DNA of 56,259 nt, from sequence record SRR31156797_5663. One strand, 5' to 3'. Of the stretch, positions 1 to 9,333 are shown piece after piece; within the stretch, counting starts at the first letter, position 1; every line of letters starts with the position of its first letter. A program made the position numbers and the translations under genes. The notes under the pieces were generated by a model. It did no database searches and was not told where the DNA came from. It saw only the letters and a program-made list of their open reading frames with translations.

Positions 1-1462
1 TGGAGCTCATACGCTCATCCAAGTCTTTCGGATCGATCCAACGGGCGATCTTGTGGCCCATTGGGGTCATGATGACTTCCGCATTGTACTCATTCATCAT
101 GCGATATTGGAAAACTTCAAATTGCAGTTGCCCGACAGCACCGATGATATACTCATCACTAAGATACGTCTTGTACAACTGGATAGCCCCTTCTTGGACC
201 AACTGATAGATTCCTTTATGGAAAGATTTTTGCTTCATCACATTTTTCGCAGTAACTTTCATAAAGAGTTCCGGAGTAAACGATGGCAGCTCTTCGTAAG
301 CAACTTTTAGTTTTCCTTCATAAATCGTGTCACCGATTTGATAATTCCCCGTGTCATAGACACCAATGATATCTCCGGCGACAGCTTCTTCAATATTTTC
401 ACGGGTATCAGCCATAAATTGAGTCACATTACTGAGTTTCATTTTTTTGCCAGTACGTTCTAAAGTAACGTCCATGCCTCGTTCAAAGGTTCCTGAACAA
501 ATGCGGACAAAGGCGATCCGGTCACGATGGGCAGGATTCATGTTTGCTTGGATCTTGAATACAAACCCAGACATTTCTGGTTCATAAGGACTGACTTCCT
601 CACCAGCTAGTGTTTTATGTCCGTAAGGTGCTGGTGCAAAAGTCAAGAAGGTTTCTAAAAAGGTCTGTACGCCAAAATTTGTGAGAGCAGAACCAAAGAA
701 TACAGGGGTTTGATCGCCCCGAGCGATTTTTTCTGTATCAAAGGCGTCGCCAGCTTCTTGCAGCAATTCCACTTCTTCTAAAACTTGTTGGAACAGCCCA
801 TCTTCGGCAAATGGATGATCTGCTGGGAATTGACCATTTTCATCTAGGGCAACTAAACGTTCCCCACCGTGATTGTCAGGACGGTAAAATTCGACCCGTT
901 GGTTGTGGATATCATACAGTCCTTCCAAGCCTTTCCCCATGCCGATCGGCCAATTCATTGGAAATGATTCGATCTCTAAAAGATCTTCTAGTTCTTCTAA
1001 TAATTCTAATGGTTCGCGGCCATCACGGTCGAGTTTATTGATAAAAGTAAAAATCGGAATACCACGTTTTTTAACGACCTGGAAGAGTTTTTTCGTTTGT
1101 GCTTCGATCCCTTTTGCGCTATCGATCACCATGACAGCACTATCCACCGCCATCAAGGTACGGTAGGTATCTTCAGAAAAGTCCTCATGCCCAGGGGTAT
1201 CTAAAATATTGACCCGTTTGCCTTGGTAATCAAACTGCATAACGGAACTGGTAACGGAGATCCCCCGTTGTTTTTCGATTTCCATCCAGTCGGACTTTGC
1301 GAAATTACCAGTCTTTTTCCCTTTGACCGTACCAGCTTGGCGAATCGCGCCACCGAATAATAATAATTGTTCTGTAATGGTTGTTTTCCCCGCATCCGGA
1401 TGGGAAATAATCGCAAAGGTACGGCGACTATCGACTTGTTGTTTTAATTTTGGATTATCCAT
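1..1462 (-). CDS. prfC: Peptide chain release factor 3 (3' end runs off the window)
   Basis: Absent from the ORF track. Manual translation from ATG 1462 gives [67 protein letters not shown], followed by DTPGH and FINKLD GTPase motifs. GGAG RBS upstream. Confidence 0.97.
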
Positions 1463-1572
1463 TGATTCTATTGCTCCATTTCTTGTATTTACAATGCGAA
1501 CAGTGTCTATTTTAGACTGTCGCTAGTTTTCTGACCAAATCAGTATATCATGGATAAGGGTGATAAAAAAGC

Positions 1573-1632
1573 AAAAAAAGACAAGAAACCCCTTTGACTA
1601 CTCTCTTTTAGAGAGTTAGGCAAAGGGCGTTC
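1573..1632 (-). terminator. Intrinsic terminator of the lplA-ABC operon
   Basis: Hairpin CCCTTTG..CTCTC/GAGAG..CAAAGGG (1590-1627) followed by T-rich runs on the minus strand, just past the binding-protein stop. Confidence 0.7.
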
Positions 1633-1654
1633 CTTCCATTTTGATAGAAATAAA

Positions 1655-2470
1655 TTAAAATGCTGGCAATAAGGTATCGCTATGCTCGTTTTCTAAAAAC
1701 TCACGAACTTTATCGCTAGTCATGGCACGGCGCAATACAGCGATTTTTTCAGAATCTTGATTGTCTTCTCGAGCAACCAATGAGATAGCAAAGCGATCAT
1801 CGATGGTCTTTTCTAAGAAAAGGGCATCTGCTGGTTTCAAACCGATCTTCGCGATATAGGTTGGGTAATTGTATACCAAAGATACGTTTGGTTCATCATA
1901 GGCTTCCGCAAGATTCAGTAAATCGACAGATAACCACTCAAATTTTTTCGGATTTTCGGTAATGTCTTTTAATGTCCCATTGACACCAACGCCTTCTTTA
2001 AGGGTAATCAATCCTTCTTCTGCTAAAATCGCTAACGCTCGACCTTCATTGGACACATCATTTGGCAATGCGACTTTCGTTCCTTCTGGAATATCATTGA
2101 TATCCGTATACTCTTTGGAATAAAAACCGACTTTTGCGTTGTAGATTTTATCTAGTGCCACTAGGTTTGCATCTTTTTCTTCATTATACATTTGCATATA
2201 TGGTTCATGTTGCGCAAAGTTAGCATCGACCTCGTCATTATTCAGCAACTCATTGTACTGGATATTGTCATTGACTTGGACCAATTGGATTTCCCAGCCA
2301 TCTTCCACTGCTTCAGCTGCAACCTTTACGACATCGGTCATTGGCGTCGTTTGCGAAGCGACCTTGATGATTTTCTCTTCGCTCGCTTCATCAGAACCTG
2401 TACCGCAAGCCCCCAATACACCTAATGCCAATACACTCAGTCCTAAAACAAATCCTTTTTTCACTTTCAT
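1655..2470 (-). CDS. MetQ/NlpA-family ABC substrate-binding lipoprotein (divergent pocket)
   Basis: Lipobox LGAC; DANFAQHEPY and PNDVSNEGRAL family motifs; 271 aa. Confidence 0.9.
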   Translation of the reverse strand: MKVKKGFVLGLSVLALGVLGACGTGSDEASEEKIIKVASQTTPMTDVVKVAAEAVEDGWEIQLVQVNDNIQYNELLNNDEVDANFAQHEPYMQMYNEEKDANLVALDKIYNAKVGFYSKEYTDINDIPEGTKVALPNDVSNEGRALAILAEEGLITLKEGVGVNGTLKDITENPKKFEWLSVDLLNLAEAYDEPNVSLVYNYPTYIAKIGLKPADALFLEKTIDDRFAISLVAREDNQDSEKIAVLRRAMTSDKVREFLENEHSDTLLPAF

Positions 2471-2475
2471 TCCTC

Positions 2476-3144
2476 CTATTTTCGTTTATCAAGTTTTCTT
2501 GCTGCTTGATTGCCAATCCCTTGCAGGATAAAGACCAAAAGAATCATGATGATAATTGCAAAATACATCACGCCATACTCATAACGCTGGTACCCATAAC
2601 GGATCGCAAAATCGCCGATACCGCCACCACCAACGATCCCCATCACCGTCGAATAAGAAACCATGCTGACTGCTGTCGTCGTTAAAGATAAAATCAAGCC
2701 GCTTCTAGCTTCCACTAGTAAAAACGACCAAACATACTGCCATTGACTGACACCAAGAGATTTCGCCAAATAAGAAACTTCTTCTGGAACATCCAACAGC
2801 ACTTGCTCCGTCAAACGAGCAAAAATACTCATAGCAACGATGCTCAAAGGAAAACTGGCGGGAATCGGTCCAAATGAGCTGCCTAAAAGCATCCGCGTCA
2901 ACGGGATCAACGCTACAACAAATAATAAAAAAGGAAACGAGCGGATGATCGTCACAACGAGATTCAAACACTCATAAAGAAATGAGATTTTTTTCCCTCG
3001 GCTGCGACTGAGAAAAAGCCAGACACCTAACGGTAGACCTAAGACAATGGCTGCGAGCATCGAAATGCCCATCATGATCGCTGTTTCTTTCAAAGATTGC
3101 AGCAATTCAGGCAGATAATACAAAATACTCTCACTGATCGTCAT
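2476..3144 (-). CDS. MetI-family ABC permease
   Basis: RSFPFLL motif and GIVGGGGIGDFAIRYGYQRY signature; hydrophobic, 222 aa. Confidence 0.9.
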   Translation of the reverse strand: MTISESILYYLPELLQSLKETAIMMGISMLAAIVLGLPLGVWLFLSRSRGKKISFLYECLNLVVTIIRSFPFLLFVVALIPLTRMLLGSSFGPIPASFPLSIVAMSIFARLTEQVLLDVPEEVSYLAKSLGVSQWQYVWSFLLVEARSGLILSLTTTAVSMVSYSTVMGIVGGGGIGDFAIRYGYQRYEYGVMYFAIIIMILLVFILQGIGNQAARKLDKRK

Positions 3145-3856
3145 GCAGCAGACTCCTCTCCACTTTGTTCACATAAGAGCTTTCAATGCGGACGATTGGT
3201 TGTGGCTGATTGGCAAACTCCGCCTCAAAGACGGCATCCTCCAATACAAACACACGTTGACAAATTTGTCGGACGGCCGATAGCTCATGACTGACAAAGA
3301 CGACAGCTGGTTGAAACGTCTGTTGAACTTTTTGCAGCAAAGCAAGAACATCGGCTTTCGTATCTTCGTCCAGCGCACTAGTGGGCTCGTCACACAGCAA
3401 GATTTTTGGCTCACGGATCAAAGCCCGTGCAATAGCCACTCGTTGTTTCTCTCCGCCGCTTAACTTGGCCGGATAGATGTGGGCTTTATCTTCCATGCCA
3501 ACAAACGAAAGCATCTCAAGTACCATATCTGCTGACTTTCCCATTAACTTCAAGGGCAAATAGACATTTTCGAAAACGGTTCGATTGTGTAACAGATTGT
3601 AATTTTGAAAAATCATGCCGATTTCTTGTTGTGCACGTAGCAGATGCTTTTTATTCGATGTATCGATTTTTTTGCCATCAAAAAGTAATTCCCCGCTGTC
3701 TGGGGTTTCAATAAAGTTTAAAAGCCGCAACAACGTCGATTTTCCTGAGCCGCTTTTGCCGACGACCCCAACGATTTCTCCTGCCTGAACAGAAAAAGAC
3801 AAACCATCGAGAACCTTTCGATCGTAACGCTTTGTGAGATTGATCGCTTCTAACAT
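3131..3856 (-). CDS. MetN-like ABC ATPase lacking a C-terminal NIL domain
   Basis: GKSGSGKS, IGMIFQNYNLL, LSGGEKQRVAIARAL, CDEPTSALD. Start moved to ATG 3856 because AGGAGG overlaps the lplA stop. 241 aa. Confidence 0.9.
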   Translation of the reverse strand: MLEAINLTKRYDRKVLDGLSFSVQAGEIVGVVGKSGSGKSTLLRLLNFIETPDSGELLFDGKKIDTSNKKHLLRAQQEIGMIFQNYNLLHNRTVFENVYLPLKLMGKSADMVLEMLSFVGMEDKAHIYPAKLSGGEKQRVAIARALIREPKILLCDEPTSALDEDTKADVLALLQKVQQTFQPAVVFVSHELSAVRQICQRVFVLEDAVFEAEFANQPQPIVRIESSYVNKVERSLLHDDQ

Positions 3857-3866
3857 CTTTTTCCTC

Positions 3867-4883
3867 CTAATCAAACAGCAATGCTAAAAATTCAGAAGCG
3901 GTCATCTGATGGATAAACTGATCGATGGCGATTCCCTCTAGCAAGCGGCTAATGGTGCTTTTTTCAAAATCAATACCTTGCAACATCGCTTCAAGTTCAC
4001 TGATCTCTTTTTGTCCAAAAAAATCACCGGTAATTTGAATCGCTGCAATCTTGCCTTTGTTGACAGTAAAATCGACTTCAACAATCCCAACCTGCTCAAA
4101 CCGCTTTCTTTTTTGCCATTCGAAAGCAGGCGCTTCATTAAAAATCCACTCATTATTGGCATATCGTTCTTCAAACAGTGCTTGGATCGCTTGTCGATCG
4201 TTTTCCGTTAAGACGATCTCTTGCTCACTGATTTCATCAATCGATTCTACTTCATAGATTCGGCAAAGCAGTGTATCTCGAAATTCCTTGGTATCCATTG
4301 ATTGGTATTGCTCTGCCAAAAAGGGCTTGATATTCGTCACACTTTTCCGAACTGATTTCGTGGCTTTAGAAGCAATTTTTTCTTGGGCAACATGTAGAAC
4401 TTTCGTCAATTCTTCTAGATCCACATCATACATCAACGTGCCATGAGAATACGTCCGGCCTTTTTTTGTATACATCGCATTGCCAGAAAACTTTTTCCCA
4501 TCAATGAACAGATCATTACGGCCATGTACTTCAACATCCTTGGCTCCCATTGCCGCTAAGCCTTTCATGATCGGTTGTGTTGCACTTTGATAGTCACCAA
4601 AACTCGTGGCATCTTTTTTGGTGACAAAACTAAAACTCATATTGCCTAGATCGTCATAAACCGCTCCACCACCAGACGTTCTGCGAGTCAAAACGATCTT
4701 ACGGCTTCTTAGATAGTCAAAATCAATCTCTTGATACGCATTCTGATTTCTGCCGATTATAACACATGGTTTTTGTATGTATAACAGAAGACAAGGTTCC
4801 GAAACATCTACGTTATTCATCAGATACTCTTCAGTCGCCAAATTGTAACGGATATCTTCACTAAGCATACGGTAAAATTTCAT
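3867..4883 (-). CDS. lplA: Lipoate--protein ligase (LplA/LplJ family)
   Basis: NLATEEYL, IIGRNQN, RRTSGGGAVYDDLGN, GRNDL..GKKFSGNA, HGTL, KSVRKSVTNI; C-terminal ligase domain with GDFF. Confidence 0.95.
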   Translation of the reverse strand: MKFYRMLSEDIRYNLATEEYLMNNVDVSEPCLLLYIQKPCVIIGRNQNAYQEIDFDYLRSRKIVLTRRTSGGGAVYDDLGNMSFSFVTKKDATSFGDYQSATQPIMKGLAAMGAKDVEVHGRNDLFIDGKKFSGNAMYTKKGRTYSHGTLMYDVDLEELTKVLHVAQEKIASKATKSVRKSVTNIKPFLAEQYQSMDTKEFRDTLLCRIYEVESIDEISEQEIVLTENDRQAIQALFEERYANNEWIFNEAPAFEWQKRKRFEQVGIVEVDFTVNKGKIAAIQITGDFFGQKEISELEAMLQGIDFEKSTISRLLEGIAIDQFIHQMTASEFLALLFD

Positions 4884-5068
4884 TTCAAGCCCCTCATTCT
4901 CATTATATTTCTATGGATATTCTCGCTTTTCTTACGGAAAATTGCAATCAAACTGCTTAACGATAAGATACACGTGTTTTTTTATCTGTTTTTAAACTGT
5001 ATTATTCAATAAATTTATCGTAACCGTTTCTTCCATACAAATCAAGGGGAATACGTAAAAAAACGGAC

Positions 5069-5100
5069 AAAAAAGACCAAAGCAACTGCCTTGGTCTTTC
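5069..5100 (-). terminator. Intrinsic terminator after the CorC/HlyC-family gene
   Basis: AAAGACCAAAGCA..TGCCTTGGTCTTT stem with an A6 run (U tract on the minus strand). Confidence 0.7.
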
Positions 5101-5121
5101 TCATTTCATTTATACGGAACT

Positions 5122-6498
5122 TTAACGGCGAGGCTCATCTTCCTCAAAATCTTTACGGAAATAGCGCCGCTCTTCCTCTGGTTCCACTTCCCCTTCTTCT
5201 GGGTCGTGGAAAATCACCCGGATCTTCAAGACGCGTGATCCTTCCATTTCTTCAGAGATCAGCTTCACATTGTCCACTTCGAAGGATAGTTTTTCTCCTT
5301 CATCAGGGATTAATCCTAAAGCAGTGATCAAATATCCTGCCATCGTATCCACATCACTCATATGCAAGCTCATGTTGAAGGCTTCATTAAAATCATCGAT
5401 CAACATGCGTCCTTGGATGACATATTCTTTATCAGAGATTTTTTCATAAAGCTCTTCGACTTCATCTGATTCATCATCGATCTCGCCGACGATTTCTTCT
5501 AGCAAGTCTTCTAGTGTAACCAATCCAACGACGCCGCCATATTCATCAAGCAAAATCGCCATTTGGTTTTGGGTTTTCTTTAATTCATAAAGCAAATCAT
5601 CGATAAAGACCGTTTCTGGCACAAACAATGGTTCCTGCAGGATTTGTTTGATGTCCATCGTATCAAAGCCGTATTTGTACGCACATTTCAAAAGATTTTT
5701 GGTATGTAGAATCCCTACGACTTTGTCTTTATCTTCATTATATACAGGAATACGAGAATAATTTTCTGCTAAAATTTCAGTCAAAATTTCTTCTACTGAG
5801 TCATTGATGTCCACCATAAAGGCTGAGGTTCTAGGAACCATGACTTCCCGGGCGACTTTCGTGTCTAATGAAAAGATCCCTTGCAGCATCTCTAATTCAT
5901 CTTCTTCAAAGACCCCTTCTGTTTCCAACATATACCGCATTTCATCACGGGTCATCTTCGTGTCTTCATCGTCAAATTCCATTGGAGTGATGCGCGCCAA
6001 TAAACTTGTCGAAGCAGATAAGAACCAGACGAAAGGTTTTGCAATAATCCCGATCGTTCGAATGACACCAGAAGTGAACTGGGCAACTTCTTCTGATTTG
6101 TTCATGGCGATCCGTTTTGGATACAACTCACCGAAAACGATCGACACATACGTCAAGATCGCTAAAACAATAATGTTCGCTAAGCTTTTAGCCGCCGTCC
6201 CTCCACCTAATAAAGGTGCCAAACGGGTCGACAAGGTATCTGCCAGAGATGCCCCAGATAAAATATTCACCAAGGTAATCCCAACTTGGATCGTTGACAA
6301 GAAATTTGTTGGATTATCAATGATTTTCAATAATTTTTGTGATTTGACATTTCCTTCTTCCGCTTTTTGCTCCACACGGTTTTTGTTAACTGAGACAACT
6401 GCGATCTCAGAGGCCGCTAGAAAAGCGTTGATCAATGTCAAAACGATCAATAATAAAATTTGCGCTAGAAGCGACTGACTCTCGGGGTCAGCATTCAT
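5122..6498 (-). CDS. HlyC/CorC (CNNM/DUF21-CBS-CorC) family transporter, 'hemolysin family', probable Mg2+ exporter
   Basis: [63 protein letters not shown]. Confidence 0.92.
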
Positions 6499-6610
6499 AA
6501 TAGCATTCTCTCCTTATTTTTTCATTTTCTAAAAAAAATCGTGGGCTTAGCCCACGATAAAATCCTATCACAAAGTTTTTTTCTTTGCAATAAAAAACAC
6601 CAGTCATTGA

Positions 6611-7726
6611 TTATTCGATCAACCGTTCCTGATTTTTCTTGATTTTGTCGTCTTTGATCAGGCGAACAATAAAGACGACGATCGTTCGGCAAATCGCATA
6701 AAATGGCACACCTAGGAAAATCCCCAGCAAGCCAGCTAGATTTCCAGCAACTAATAAGACCAAAATGATCGTTAACGGATGGATCGCCAATGATTTTCCG
6801 ATTACATTCGGGTAAATAACATTTCCGTCTAATTGTTGGACGACCAGAACCACGATACAGCATAATAATGCGCGAAATGGTTCATCAAAGACCGTCACTA
6901 ACACCGCCGGAATCAAACCAAGATATGGGCCTAAATAAGGGATCAAGTTTGTGACGCCTGCAATTACCCCAAAAAGAAAGGCATAGTTAACGCCGATCAT
7001 CCAGTAACCAATAAACGTGAAGGTAGCGACAAAAATACATTCGATCGCTTGCCCACTAATGTAATTGGATAATGTCTTGTTTAAGTCACCTAGCAACCCA
7101 ACAATCTGATCTCGTCTTCTTTCTGGAAAGACAGTTTTCAGATTAGGAACTAGCTTTTCTCCATCCTTCAACATGTAAAACAGGATGAATGGTACTGTAA
7201 CGATGATCATCGTCGCGGAAGCAATCGTACTGACGATCGATCCTAAGCTAGTGGATAACCCACTAAGAAACTGCTGCAGCAAAGAACCATAAGAAAGATT
7301 TAGGTTTTCTAACTGCTGCGCGATATCGATTTGTTTGAAAAATGGATCATCTGCGATTCTTGAGATCCAGCTTTCCATATTTTTGGCAAATGTTGGAATA
7401 TTTTCCGCCAATGAAGTAATCTGACTCACTAGATTAGGAATAACGCTGACGAAAATCAAGATGATTGCTGCTACTAATAACAACAGAACCAATATGACAG
7501 CAAACAGTCGTTTTATTTTTGTGGTTTTCATCAAAAATAAGACGATTGGATTTAGCAGGTAATACAGAAAGCCAGCAATCAATACTGGTGCAAATAAAGT
7601 AGAAAAAAACGTGCCAATCGGTGCAAATAGAAAATTGACTTTACTTAACACAAACACGAGTGTCACTAAAACCAATGCTTCCAATGACCAAAAGAACAGT
7701 TTTGATTGTTTGAATTTGTCGAACAA
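6611..7726 (-). CDS. AI-2E family transporter
   Basis: Multi-TM protein with LFYMLKDG, YISGQ, NLIPYLGP, QQLDGNVIYP, IHPL. TTG start at 7726 behind a GGAGG RBS. Confidence 0.9.
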   Translation of the reverse strand: MFDKFKQSKLFFWSLEALVLVTLVFVLSKVNFLFAPIGTFFSTLFAPVLIAGFLYYLLNPIVLFLMKTTKIKRLFAVILVLLLLVAAIILIFVSVIPNLVSQITSLAENIPTFAKNMESWISRIADDPFFKQIDIAQQLENLNLSYGSLLQQFLSGLSTSLGSIVSTIASATMIIVTVPFILFYMLKDGEKLVPNLKTVFPERRRDQIVGLLGDLNKTLSNYISGQAIECIFVATFTFIGYWMIGVNYAFLFGVIAGVTNLIPYLGPYLGLIPAVLVTVFDEPFRALLCCIVVLVVQQLDGNVIYPNVIGKSLAIHPLTIILVLLVAGNLAGLLGIFLGVPFYAICRTIVVFIVRLIKDDKIKKNQERLIE

Positions 7727-7868
7727 AAGATTCCCTCCCTTTTTTATAACATTATAGATGATTTTGAAAAAAAAAGCTTGCGACTTTAGCCGCAAACAAA
7801 AAAAATTTGTAAAAAAAGTGGTATACTATTAAAAATAACGGAGAAATCTTAGCTGAGGTGAATTTTTT

Positions 7869-8312
7869 ATGCATATTGCACAAACAAAAGATACGCTGAG
7901 TGACATTTATTTGGCGTCATTGAAAATACGAAATCAAGTATTCGTGAAAGAGCAAGGTGTTCCATTAGCATTGGAAGTAGATGAAAATGAAGCATTGGCA
8001 GTCCACTTTGTCTTATATGACGACGATAATGAAGCAGTCGCAACCTTGCGTTTCTTACCTATCTCTGATCATGAAGTGAAGTTGCAGCGAATGGCGGTCC
8101 CCGCTGCTCATCGAGGTTCAGGTTATGGCAGACAACTGATCGAAGGTGCGGAAGCCTTCATTCAAAAACAAGGAATCAAAAAAGTCACTTTAGGGGCACA
8201 AATAACTGCCAAAGAGTTTTACTTGAAGTTAGGCTATCAGCCTCAAGGCGATGTTTTTTTAGACGCAGATATGCCCCATATCAAAATGAGCAAAATCTTT
8301 AACGAGAAGTGA
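7869..8312 (+). CDS. GNAT N-acetyltransferase (ElaA/YjcF-like)
   Basis: IRNQVFVKEQG, RMAV..HRGSGYGRQL, AQ..AKEFYLKLGY, PHIKM. Confidence 0.88.
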   Translation: MHIAQTKDTLSDIYLASLKIRNQVFVKEQGVPLALEVDENEALAVHFVLYDDDNEAVATLRFLPISDHEVKLQRMAVPAAHRGSGYGRQLIEGAEAFIQKQGIKKVTLGAQITAKEFYLKLGYQPQGDVFLDADMPHIKMSKIFNEK

Positions 8313-8324
8313 TTCCTTAAAATA

Positions 8325-8372
8325 GCGACCACAAAACAGATCCTTCCTCTGTTTTGTAGTCGCCGTTTTTTT
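8325..8372. terminator. Terminator between the convergent GNAT and amidase genes
   Basis: GCGACCACAAAACAGA..TCTGTTTTGTAGTCGC stem followed by a T tract. Confidence 0.7.
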
Positions 8373-9333
8373 ATTCCTCTGCTTCAACGATCTCTTCAAT
8401 CGCTGTCAGCAACGCTTGCGCCACCCTTTGATCATACCCTTCACTTGTAATCATTGCCAAATCATTGTCACTGTTCAAATAGCCTAACTCCAATAATACT
8501 GCTGGAAGATATTGTTCTCGCAACACATAATAGTTACCAAAACGAGTGCCGTTGGAACTCAATGCCACCGAAGAACTCAAATTGGCAGTGATCGTTTCTG
8601 CCATCTCTTTTGACCCAGTATAGTAATAGTAAGTTGTCAGTCCTTGATTGCTGTTTGGTATTTCTGAATTATCGTAATGAATGCTAATAAATAAATCTGG
8701 TTCTTCTGAAAGCGAAGCAGCGGTGATATCAGACAGCGAGAGATAACGATCTTCAGTGCGTGTATAACTGACTTGAATACCTGCTTCTGTCAACACTTCG
8801 CCGATCGTTTGGACCGTTGTTAGCGTCAAGTCTTTTTCCATGATCATTTGATCCGTTGACAGTGCCCCAGAATCTTCGCCGCCGTGACCTGCATCAAGGA
8901 CGACTTTGAAGTTCGATAGATCTTTTGGGATTGCCGAAAGCGCGACTTCTTGAATCGATGCTGATTGCTTTTCAATATAACCAGTTACCCCATCGTCTGT
9001 TTGAATTTCAACCATGTCTTCTGTTTGACTGATGAAGGTTGCCCAACTTCCCCGATGGATTTTCCCAATGACTGTCTCTTGACTTGTTGACTGATAAATC
9101 GGTACATAATCGTTCTCACTTTCAATCGCTGCATCGTATTCTGAGGGATCTACATAAATTTGAACCATACTGGCAGTCTGAGCGGTCTCTTCAGTTTGAG
9201 CGTTAAGCTCAGTTTGAGAAGTACTTTCTTGACTCTCCTCACGAGCGGATTGGTCGTTTCTCAACACAGCAAACCCCGCTGCAAAAAGCAGAATCATGGT
9301 GGTCCCGATAACAAGCTTCCCTTTTTTCTTCAT
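8371..9333 (-). CDS. N-acetylmuramoyl-L-alanine amidase (Amidase_3) with N-terminal membrane anchor and SH3-like domain
   Basis: DAGHGG, EKDLTL, SIH, YYVLRE, PAVLLELGY Zn motifs; N-terminal hydrophobic helix; SH3b-like VEIQTDDGVTGYI. Confidence 0.88.
   Translation of the reverse strand: MKKKGKLVIGTTMILLFAAGFAVLRNDQSAREESQESTSQTELNAQTEETAQTASMVQIYVDPSEYDAAIESENDYVPIYQSTSQETVIGKIHRGSWATFISQTEDMVEIQTDDGVTGYIEKQSASIQEVALSAIPKDLSNFKVVLDAGHGGEDSGALSTDQMIMEKDLTLTTVQTIGEVLTEAGIQVSYTRTEDRYLSLSDITAASLSEEPDLFISIHYDNSEIPNSNQGLTTYYYYTGSKEMAETITANLSSSVALSSNGTRFGNYYVLREQYLPAVLLELGYLNSDNDLAMITSEGYDQRVAQALLTAIEEIVEAEE

Follow-up and report, generated by a model that had tools for sequence, protein, structure and literature searches.

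Organization of the locus

A unit of four genes was detected on the minus strand, between positions 4883 and 1655, of the DNA stretch SRR31156797_5663 (56,259 nt; hereafter "the window", meaning the whole stretch that was analysed). In reading order, it encodes a lipoate-protein ligase (LplA), a MetN-like ATP-binding cassette (ABC) ATPase, a MetI-like permease and a substrate-binding lipoprotein of the MetQ/NlpA family, as shown in Table 1. The initial annotation of this DNA had proposed that the four genes form one unit bounded by terminators and that the ABC system imports lipoate, lipoamide or lipoyl-lysine for the ligase. The first of these proposals was borne out: the lplA, ATPase, permease and lipoprotein genes are one operon unit from an Enterococcus, with tight coupling between the genes, a terminator on each side and RNA contigs that bridge the gene junctions.

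The details of the coupling were also found as the initial annotation had described them. The stop codon of lplA (TAG, 3869-3867) sits within TAGGAGG (3869-3863), which is the ribosome-binding site of the ATPase gene, and the ATG of the latter at 3856 lies six bases past GGAGG, though the mechanical list of open reading frames (ORFs) starts this gene at TTG 3874 instead. The ATPase stop codon (3133-3131) lies beyond the permease ATG (3144), giving an overlap of 14 nt, while the permease stop at 2476 is followed by the binding-protein ATG at 2470 after a gap of 5 nt. An alternative GTG start at 2464 is better spaced from GGAGG and would let the protein begin with MKK..., as its homologues do; this gap may therefore be 11 nt if GTG 2464 is the true start. 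Overall, the gaps and overlaps between the four genes range from -14 to +11 nt.

The upstream boundary is the terminator of the preceding CNNM/CorC-type gene. The downstream terminator was absent from a simple terminator scan and was picked up by a folding analysis with shuffles, which placed a hairpin at about 1635-1583, with a U-run after it (-29.1 kcal/mol, z = -5.28, equalled by none of 200 shuffles). In RNA library X1, a single contig of 3321 nt spans 1662-4981 and bridges all three gene junctions, which is compatible with a single transcript, but a contig cannot prove one; its coverage ends (1662 and 4981) match the operon limits, and contig ends are not readable as transcript ends. Long contigs in the RNA runs X2, X3 and X14 extend beyond the operon.

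Table 1. Positions of the operon features, of the genes flanking the operon in the window and of elements at the loci used for comparison
Feature	Position	Strand	Remarks
lplA	4883-3867	minus	338 aa lipoate-protein ligase; second, divergent LplA copy of the genome
ABC ATPase gene, MetN-like	3856-3131	minus	241 aa; PF00005 only; without C-terminal NIL/C2 domain
ABC permease gene, MetI-like	3144-2476	minus	222 aa; PF00528
Substrate-binding lipoprotein gene, MetQ/NlpA family	2470-1655	minus	271 aa; lipobox LGAC (Cys22); PF03180
Intrinsic terminator of upstream CNNM/CorC-type gene	5104-5067	minus	17-pair stem and T-run; upstream boundary of the unit
Operon promoter and leader region	4884-5066	minus	alignment of 5 upstream regions
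Intrinsic terminator 3' of binding-protein gene	1575-1635	minus	hairpin and U-run; downstream boundary of the unit
T-box leader, genome G001, L087	5150-5388	minus	
T-box leader, genome G001, L088	1251-1500	plus	
T-box leader, genome G001, L089	3610-3844	minus	
T-box leader, genome G001, L091	3306-3537	minus	
Translational-GTPase-type gene, window	2-1462	minus	leaves the window end; probably prfC, from translation only
Transporter gene, window	5122-6498	minus	CNNM, CBS and CorC_HlyC domains
AI-2E family transporter gene, window	6611-7795	minus	
GNAT acetyltransferase gene, window	7869-8312	plus	
N-acetylmuramoyl-L-alanine amidase gene, window	8371-9333	minus	
Long gap, L044	2581-3325		
Long gap, L057	4710-5492		
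Long gap, L058	4838-5524		
Long gap, L065	4692-5421		
Long gap, L071	4684-5421		
Long gap, L081	1158-1895		
OsmC-like gene, L037	4805-5293	plus	
OsmC-like gene, L052, L082 and L085			divergent, just upstream of the ATPase gene

Family assignment of the encoded proteins

The ligase is a clear member of its family, with a full-length match to the LplA equivalog model TIGR00545 (408.8 bits, cut-off 280) and with the catalytic domain (PF21948, residues 10-207) and the C-terminal accessory domain (PF10437, residues 252-336) in one chain. Solved LplA structures align with it end to end, the top relative being 5IJ6 (389 bits). The nearest genome, G001, shares 80% of sampled words with the window and carries, at the same locus, a binding protein that is 99% identical; the window-type LplA is 43% identical to the other LplA of this genome.

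The best family matches of the three transport proteins are MetN, MetI and MetQ/NlpA, each below the curated methionine-family cut-off. The ATPase scored 215.6 bits against the MetN model TIGR02314 (cut-off 499.7) and covers positions 19-216 of the 343 in the model, while the three other MetN copies in G001 cover positions 1-340 or 2-333. The NIL/C2 domain is not universal in the MetN family, and its absence from this ATPase is a feature of little weight as a criterion of membership. The permease scored 138.2 bits against the MetI model NF008049 (cut-off 212). For the binding protein, 198.9 bits were obtained with PF03180, 155 bits with TIGR00363 (MetQ/NlpA, cut-off 228.85) and 146.6 bits with the MetQ model (cut-off 374); its PF03180 match, invariant lipobox Cys22 and MetQ-like fold are those of an NlpA/MetQ-fold lipoprotein. 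Database entries name its homologues "D-methionine transport system substrate-binding protein", and a protein atlas search with the binding protein returned MetQ/NlpA names only.

The methionine pocket of the binding protein

To map the pocket, we aligned the window protein with E. coli MetQ (4YAH) in HMMER and kept the native numbering. The E. coli contact positions, which we take to be Y69, F86, H88, Y91, R144 and N202 after applying numbering offsets, carry these letters in 4YAH. The numbering was checked on the chain of the N229A variant (6CVL), which differs at exactly that column. According to the accessible portion of PMC6739813, N238 of N. meningitidis MetQ corresponds to N229 of E. 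coli, and its replacement by Ala cuts the binding of L-methionine more than 10^5-fold. Four of the seven methionine-contact residues are replaced in the window protein (Y69N, F86A with a Phe at position 85, N202Y and N229I), H88, Y91 and R144 are kept, and N141 is likewise retained. The mapped residues are invariant or almost so in 30 close homologues.

The pattern N/A/Y/I at positions 69/86/202/229 was observed in all 18 lplA-linked rows of the binding-protein comparison and in at least 48 of the 69 unlinked rows of the same clade, I and L at 229 both being counted and the figure resting on the 12 commonest patterns, which make up 62 rows. Among the other representatives at 50% identity, the commonest pattern was Y/F/N/N (49 rows), which is also found in two T-box-controlled paralogues of G001.

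Judged from the alignment, the carboxylate clamp is retained, both Asn that read the amino-acid head group (N202 and N229) are replaced by hydrophobic residues, and the thioether pocket has two aromatic walls trimmed back. Because of these three features, the ligand would be expected to have a carboxylate and no alpha-amino group, and to exceed methionine in length or bulk and in hydrophobicity. Free lipoate would match this profile, as would octanoate and some other acids.

An AlphaFold model of the binding protein was built from 30 sequences (mean predicted local distance difference test score, pLDDT, 86.2). Its best fold match was 4NTL, the E. faecalis V583 lipoprotein EF3198, followed by MetQ structures, and 4NTL was also the top sequence match among solved structures (243 bits, ~48% identity). 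The fit of 4NTL to the model had a template-modelling (TM) score of 0.74 and a root-mean-square deviation of 3.2, while methionine-bound MetQs of lower identity gave TM scores of 0.78-0.81 and the apo structure 6CVA gave 0.68; 4NTL could represent an open, unliganded state. The literature search for 4NTL found no paper on the structure.

Methionine regulation and lipoate metabolism in the nearest genome

G001 holds five further MetQ-family genes, three of which adjoin a full-length MetN, and each of these three canonical MetN and MetQ loci carries a methionine T-box. A separate canonical metNIQ elsewhere in the genome, which the initial annotation had put forward as a check, was thus found three times over. 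In all, a T-box whose specifier reads AUG precedes four of the five other MetQ loci (contigs C53, C131, C67 and C37). The T-box-controlled paralogue on contig C37 has a non-canonical pocket, with V/D/P/L at the four key positions. In contrast to these loci, no T-box or S-adenosylmethionine (SAM) riboswitch was found in the window, in the G001 copy of the locus, or in 5 other lplA-linked and 10 unlinked loci, and an Rfam search of window positions 1-9000 gave two chance-level matches only.

A leader block at 5000-4976 (ACAG..AAAAACAGATAAAA) is conserved among the four closest species. It was considered as a regulon operator and rejected, as it occurs in G001 only at its own locus and in one weak A-rich match; in this genome, no link of the block to pdh or to other lipoate genes was found. 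The 8-mer CTGTTATATAA, which recurs in other upstream regions, was likewise rejected as an operator because it resembles an extended -10 promoter element.

No lipoyl synthase (LipA) is encoded by G001, which is 100% complete, and this organism must therefore salvage lipoate; it has two LplA copies and a third protein of the LplA/B type. A search of the same genome gave no long lipoamidase candidate of the LPxTG type, and the amidase family matched two frames only (497 and 489 aa).

Distribution of the transporter and its linkage to lplA

One genome per species was scanned, which gave more than 598 matches, and the distribution counts below refer to the best 80 loci. In the full HMMER scan, few clusters at 50% identity scored above ~190 bits, and the bulk of the matches were ordinary MetQs of ~30-36% identity. 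The clade occurs in Enterococcaceae, Carnobacteriaceae, Aerococcaceae, some Staphylococcaceae and Erysipelothrix and, probably by transfer, in Actinobacteria. The 80 loci include 18 from Enterococcus and seven from Vagococcus, together with members from Brochothrix, Bavariicoccus, Tetragenococcus, Mammaliicoccus, Salinicoccus/Lacicoccus, Jeotgalicoccus, Alkalibacterium, Marinilactibacillus, Carnobacterium and relatives, Aerococcaceae and Erysipelothrix. Nine loci are actinobacterial (Brachybacterium, Nesterenkonia and Micrococcus), with 56-67% identity to the enterococcal proteins. The ATPase-permease-lipoprotein trio was present throughout, and by crude ORF calls the permease-adjacent ATPases are short across the whole clade, between 209 aa and 286 aa, the one of 209 aa coming from a truncated locus of a metagenome-assembled genome.

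A quick maximum-likelihood tree of the binding proteins (103 rows) separated the clade from the canonical MetQs with an approximate likelihood-ratio support (SH-aLRT) of 100. The check put forward in the initial annotation, whether the binding protein forms a clade of its own, thus came out positive, and the clade has the altered methionine pocket described above. All lplA-linked rows fall within one 35-row part of an Enterococcaceae-centred subclade, and the linkage label is clustered on the tree, none of 500 shuffles needing as few changes. The actinobacterial transport genes nest inside the same Enterococcaceae subclade, and this position, together with their 56-67% identity, suggests horizontal transfer from Firmicutes.

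The gene lplA lies directly upstream of the trio in 17 of the 80 loci, comprising 15 of the 18 from Enterococcus and two of the seven from Vagococcus. Seventeen other species have the same order of lplA, ATPase, permease and binding-protein genes, spaced by -14 to +22 nt, and this order is kept while the identity of LplA drops to 42% and that of the binding protein to ~63%. The genes flanking the cassette vary between species groups, so the linkage is maintained as a unit and is no relic of general synteny. No gene cluster besides lplA and the transporter trio was found in more than 10 of the 80 loci, and outside Enterococcaceae the neighbouring genes gave no clue to the substrate.

Each of the 40 carrier genomes that were tested encodes a homologue of LplA, which scored above the cut-off in 35 of them and at 120-136 bits in the five from Actinobacteria, but LplA is common in the taxa of the carriers anyway. 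LipA was absent from 29 of these 40 genomes.

Inferred substrate of the importer

The evidence firmly shows that the transporter belongs to a separate branch of the methionine-uptake ABC family, one whose specificity has changed and whose regulation is not that of a methionine importer, and it is quite probably no importer of methionine at all. As for what it carries, we infer the substrate from gene context and pocket. The favoured reading, held tentatively and with a probability of about 0.4, is that the importer would take lipoate or a close analogue (dihydrolipoate, octanoate or the like), because lplA has been fused into the operon in many species of two related genera, the chemistry of the pocket would suit such a ligand, and there is a physiological need for it.

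In the mechanism that we propose, a second-copy LplA would be co-expressed with a MetNIQ-family ABC importer re-specified away from methionine. The lipoprotein would capture free lipoate, or a similar hydrophobic carboxylate (dihydrolipoate or octanoate), outside the cell, with the retained Arg144 and Asn141 holding the carboxylate and an enlarged, more hydrophobic pocket (Y69N, F86A, N202Y and N229I) accommodating the alkyl-dithiolane tail. Inward transport would fall to the MetI-like permease and the short ATPase, and LplA would join the lipoate to the lipoyl domains of a cell unable to make lipoate. In the available part of PMC3059304, the lipoamidase of E. faecalis is described as a cell-wall-anchored surface enzyme that probably uses environmental substrates; free lipoate would therefore arise outside the cell, which is a plausible source for the importer. 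That the whole clade with N69/A86/Y202/I229 and a short ATPase, EF3198-3200 included, is the missing high-affinity lipoate importer of bacteria has, in our judgement, somewhat less than an even chance.

Several observations weigh against the lipoate assignment. The clade extends far beyond the linkage, some of its carriers make lipoate themselves, and its transfer took place without lplA. Thus, lplA adjacency is confined to Enterococcus and Vagococcus, and among the 80 loci it was not found in the Brochothrix, staphylococcal, carnobacterial, aerococcal, Erysipelothrix or actinobacterial members. A clade that always sits beside lplA, which the initial annotation had set as a check, was not recovered, and the restriction to two genera comes close to the limitation to one lineage that the same annotation had named as speaking against it. 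In the DNA examined, 63 of the 80 loci have no lplA, three of them with too little upstream DNA, and the tree requires at least seven gains or losses of the linkage, three of which are forced by well-supported branches. Only the three transport genes reached Actinobacteria. Eleven of the 40 carrier genomes can make lipoate, namely all five Actinobacteria tested, Mammaliicoccus, Lacicoccus and four Salinicoccus, and no other lipoate-related gene recurs beside the transporter in the 80 loci. The pocket was read from a sequence alignment and not from a ligand-bound model, and cells may also take in lipoate with no transporter dedicated to it. Further, the related E. faecalis V583 operon EF3200-EF3198, an ABC transporter with a YaeC lipoprotein that is induced in blood, is described in the accessible portion of PMC2766626 as consisting of three genes.

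In a rival explanation, the importer would carry another non-methionine compound, such as a hydrophobic or sulfur-containing carboxylate of food, gut or saline habitats, and the lplA link would be a lineage-specific fusion without a shared substrate. The same pocket signature is widespread at the 63 loci without lplA, and the move into LipA-positive Actinobacteria involved three genes only. Many carriers belong to halotolerant or food-associated genera, and elsewhere the trio has unrelated neighbours (a two-component system with PepSY, DJ-1/PfpI, methylglyoxal-synthase-like, thymidine kinase, DeoR, flavodoxin-like, TenA and DUF72 genes). However, lplA alone recurs widely beyond the transporter trio (17 loci against at most 10 for other clusters), the coupling of the cassette stays tight while its flanks change, and no neighbour or riboswitch indicates an alternative substrate. 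We consider this explanation rather unlikely, though the most serious of the alternatives.

It is improbable that the system is a methionine-family importer (for L- or D-methionine, methionine sulfoxide, a methionine peptide, or a keto or hydroxy analogue) that merely adjoins lplA. Such an importer would account for the best family matches (MetN, MetI and MetQ), for the database names of the homologues and for the retention of H88, Y91, N141 and R144, and the non-canonical pocket of the C37 paralogue, which is under a methionine T-box, indicates that pocket residues are an imperfect guide. Against it stand the scores of the three transport proteins, which fall under the curated cut-offs, the replacement of N229, N202, Y69 and F86, with a cost in affinity of more than 10^5 for the Asn-to-Ala change at 229 in the available part of PMC6739813, the lack of a T-box here compared with the methionine T-boxes at four other MetQ loci of G001, the ATPase without a NIL domain, and the three complete MetN and MetQ systems that the genome already has.

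The least probable alternative is that the cofactor is imported in bound form (lipoyl-lysine, lipoamide or short lipoyl-peptides) and that the linked LplA is specialised for that route, for although this ligase is a distinct paralogue with 43% identity to the housekeeping copy, the paralogous LplAs of other Firmicutes reportedly differ in their use of host lipoyl-peptides, and G001 has no long surface-type amidase beside its two amidase-family frames, the loss of the head-group Asn residues N202 and N229 with Arg144 kept would fit a free acid better than lipoyl-lysine, lipoamide has no carboxylate, and the substrate of LplA in established enzymology is free lipoate. Lipoyl-lysine, one of the substrates named in the initial annotation, is thus disfavoured by the loss of the residues that would bind its alpha-amino group.

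Comparison with known systems

The transporter shares with the MetNIQ systems of E. coli and N. meningitidis (4YAH, 6CVL, 3IR1 and 6CVA) an ATPase, a MetI-type permease and a lipoprotein of the NlpA/MetQ fold (PF03180); the fold match of the window binding protein to MetQ is good (TM score ~0.8), and H88, Y91, N141 and R144 are common to both. Unlike MetNIQ, the window system has four contact residues replaced, no NIL/C2 domain, no methionine-responsive leader and scores under the family cut-offs. EF3198 (4NTL), the YaeC-family lipoprotein of E. faecalis V583, shares N69, F85/A86, Y202 and a hydrophobic residue (Leu) at 229 with the window protein in their alignment, whereas its operon differs from that of the window in lacking lplA in the description given by the accessible portion of PMC2766626.

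The lplA-adjacent gene for a "transporter substrate binding domain" in T. halophilus is called a lipoic acid transporter, without a test, in the available part of a transcriptome paper (PMC9840258). In the T. halophilus genome, no lplA was found in the 644 nt upstream of the MetQ-like operon. The divergent lplA copy of this species was also considered as lying beside a transporter and was rejected, its neighbours in the one copy inspected being Lit, HAD, YutD-like and sulfatase-family genes instead. As far as the accessible text of PMC6522849 goes, the E. faecium lplA operon studied there differs from that of the window: genes for HD and HAD hydrolases come after lplA.

With both of its domains, the window ligase is a complete LplA, and its genome carries two copies, as in the paralogous LplA pairs of Firmicutes, among which we count the published E. 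faecalis 5IJ6 and 5IBY and, presumably, LplA1/LplA2 of Listeria and S. aureus. Unlike in these pairs, the translation of the second copy in the window is coupled to that of an ABC importer. For S. faecalis, active uptake of lipoate is said to have been reported in the 1960s. LipT, a substrate-specific (S) component of the energy-coupling-factor (ECF) type, is reportedly a predicted lipoate transporter in a comparative-genomics paper of 2009, on the grounds that its gene is co-located with lplA; the logic, a transporter gene linked to lplA in Firmicutes, would be the same, but the ECF class has no binding lipoprotein, unlike the ABC system of the window. The literature searched yielded nothing on LipT. 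In animals, the sodium-dependent multivitamin transporter SLC5A6/SMVT carries lipoate, biotin and pantothenate according to the available excerpt of its description; this secondary carrier of eukaryotes is not homologous to the window system.

The enzymes of lipoate salvage (LplA, LipL and lipoamidase) are well studied in Gram-positives, including pathogens that depend on host lipoate, and no experimentally assigned gene for the passage of lipoate across the bacterial membrane was found in the literature searched. The same search, whose coverage leaves most subscription journals outside, found no tested bacterial lipoate ABC importer and no MetQ-type lipoate importer. Should lipoate be the substrate, a re-specified methionine-type ABC system would fill this gap, a known transporter family would gain a new substrate class, and the scavenging of trace lipoate by lipoate-auxotrophic enterococci would be explained. 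The widespread annotation as a methionine transporter would be corrected, and a testable target would be available for which a homologue structure (4NTL) exists. Should the substrate differ, the clade would still illustrate clearly how a MetQ-family pocket has been rebuilt to hold something other than an amino acid.

Neighbouring genes and minor features

The neighbours of the operon in the window (Table 1) have no evident link to it. The housekeeping lplA of G001 (L092; contig C88, 170000-178000) lies downstream of genes for a metallo-beta-lactamase-fold protein, a DUF975 protein and an M42 peptidase, and a T-box near it belongs to the prolyl-tRNA synthetase gene on the opposite strand.

In Alkalibacterium and Marinilactibacillus, gaps of ~690-780 nt separate a DJ-1/PfpI gene from the ABC operon. 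These gaps hold conserved blocks, repeated C-rich motifs (TTTCTCCCC) and two terminator-like hairpins, and they contain neither a conserved ORF nor an above-threshold Rfam match. The conserved blocks may be small RNA genes; a riboswitch was rejected, since the last ~250 nt before the ATPase gene are not conserved.

An OsmC-like gene adjoins the transporter in four of the 80 loci, three from Erysipelothrix and one from Nesterenkonia. OsmC/Ohr peroxidases use lipoyl groups as reductant, and the position of this gene may be a coincidence. The neighbours at the actinobacterial loci (L028, L032-L038 and L040) include thioredoxin-like/NHL, flavodoxin-like and OsmC-like genes. In Jeotgalicoccus (L056, L063, L068, L069, L070 and L073, at about 7000-8650), a tandem duplicate of the binding-protein gene was observed downstream of the permease gene, with the two copies being 44-49% and ~50% identical to the query.

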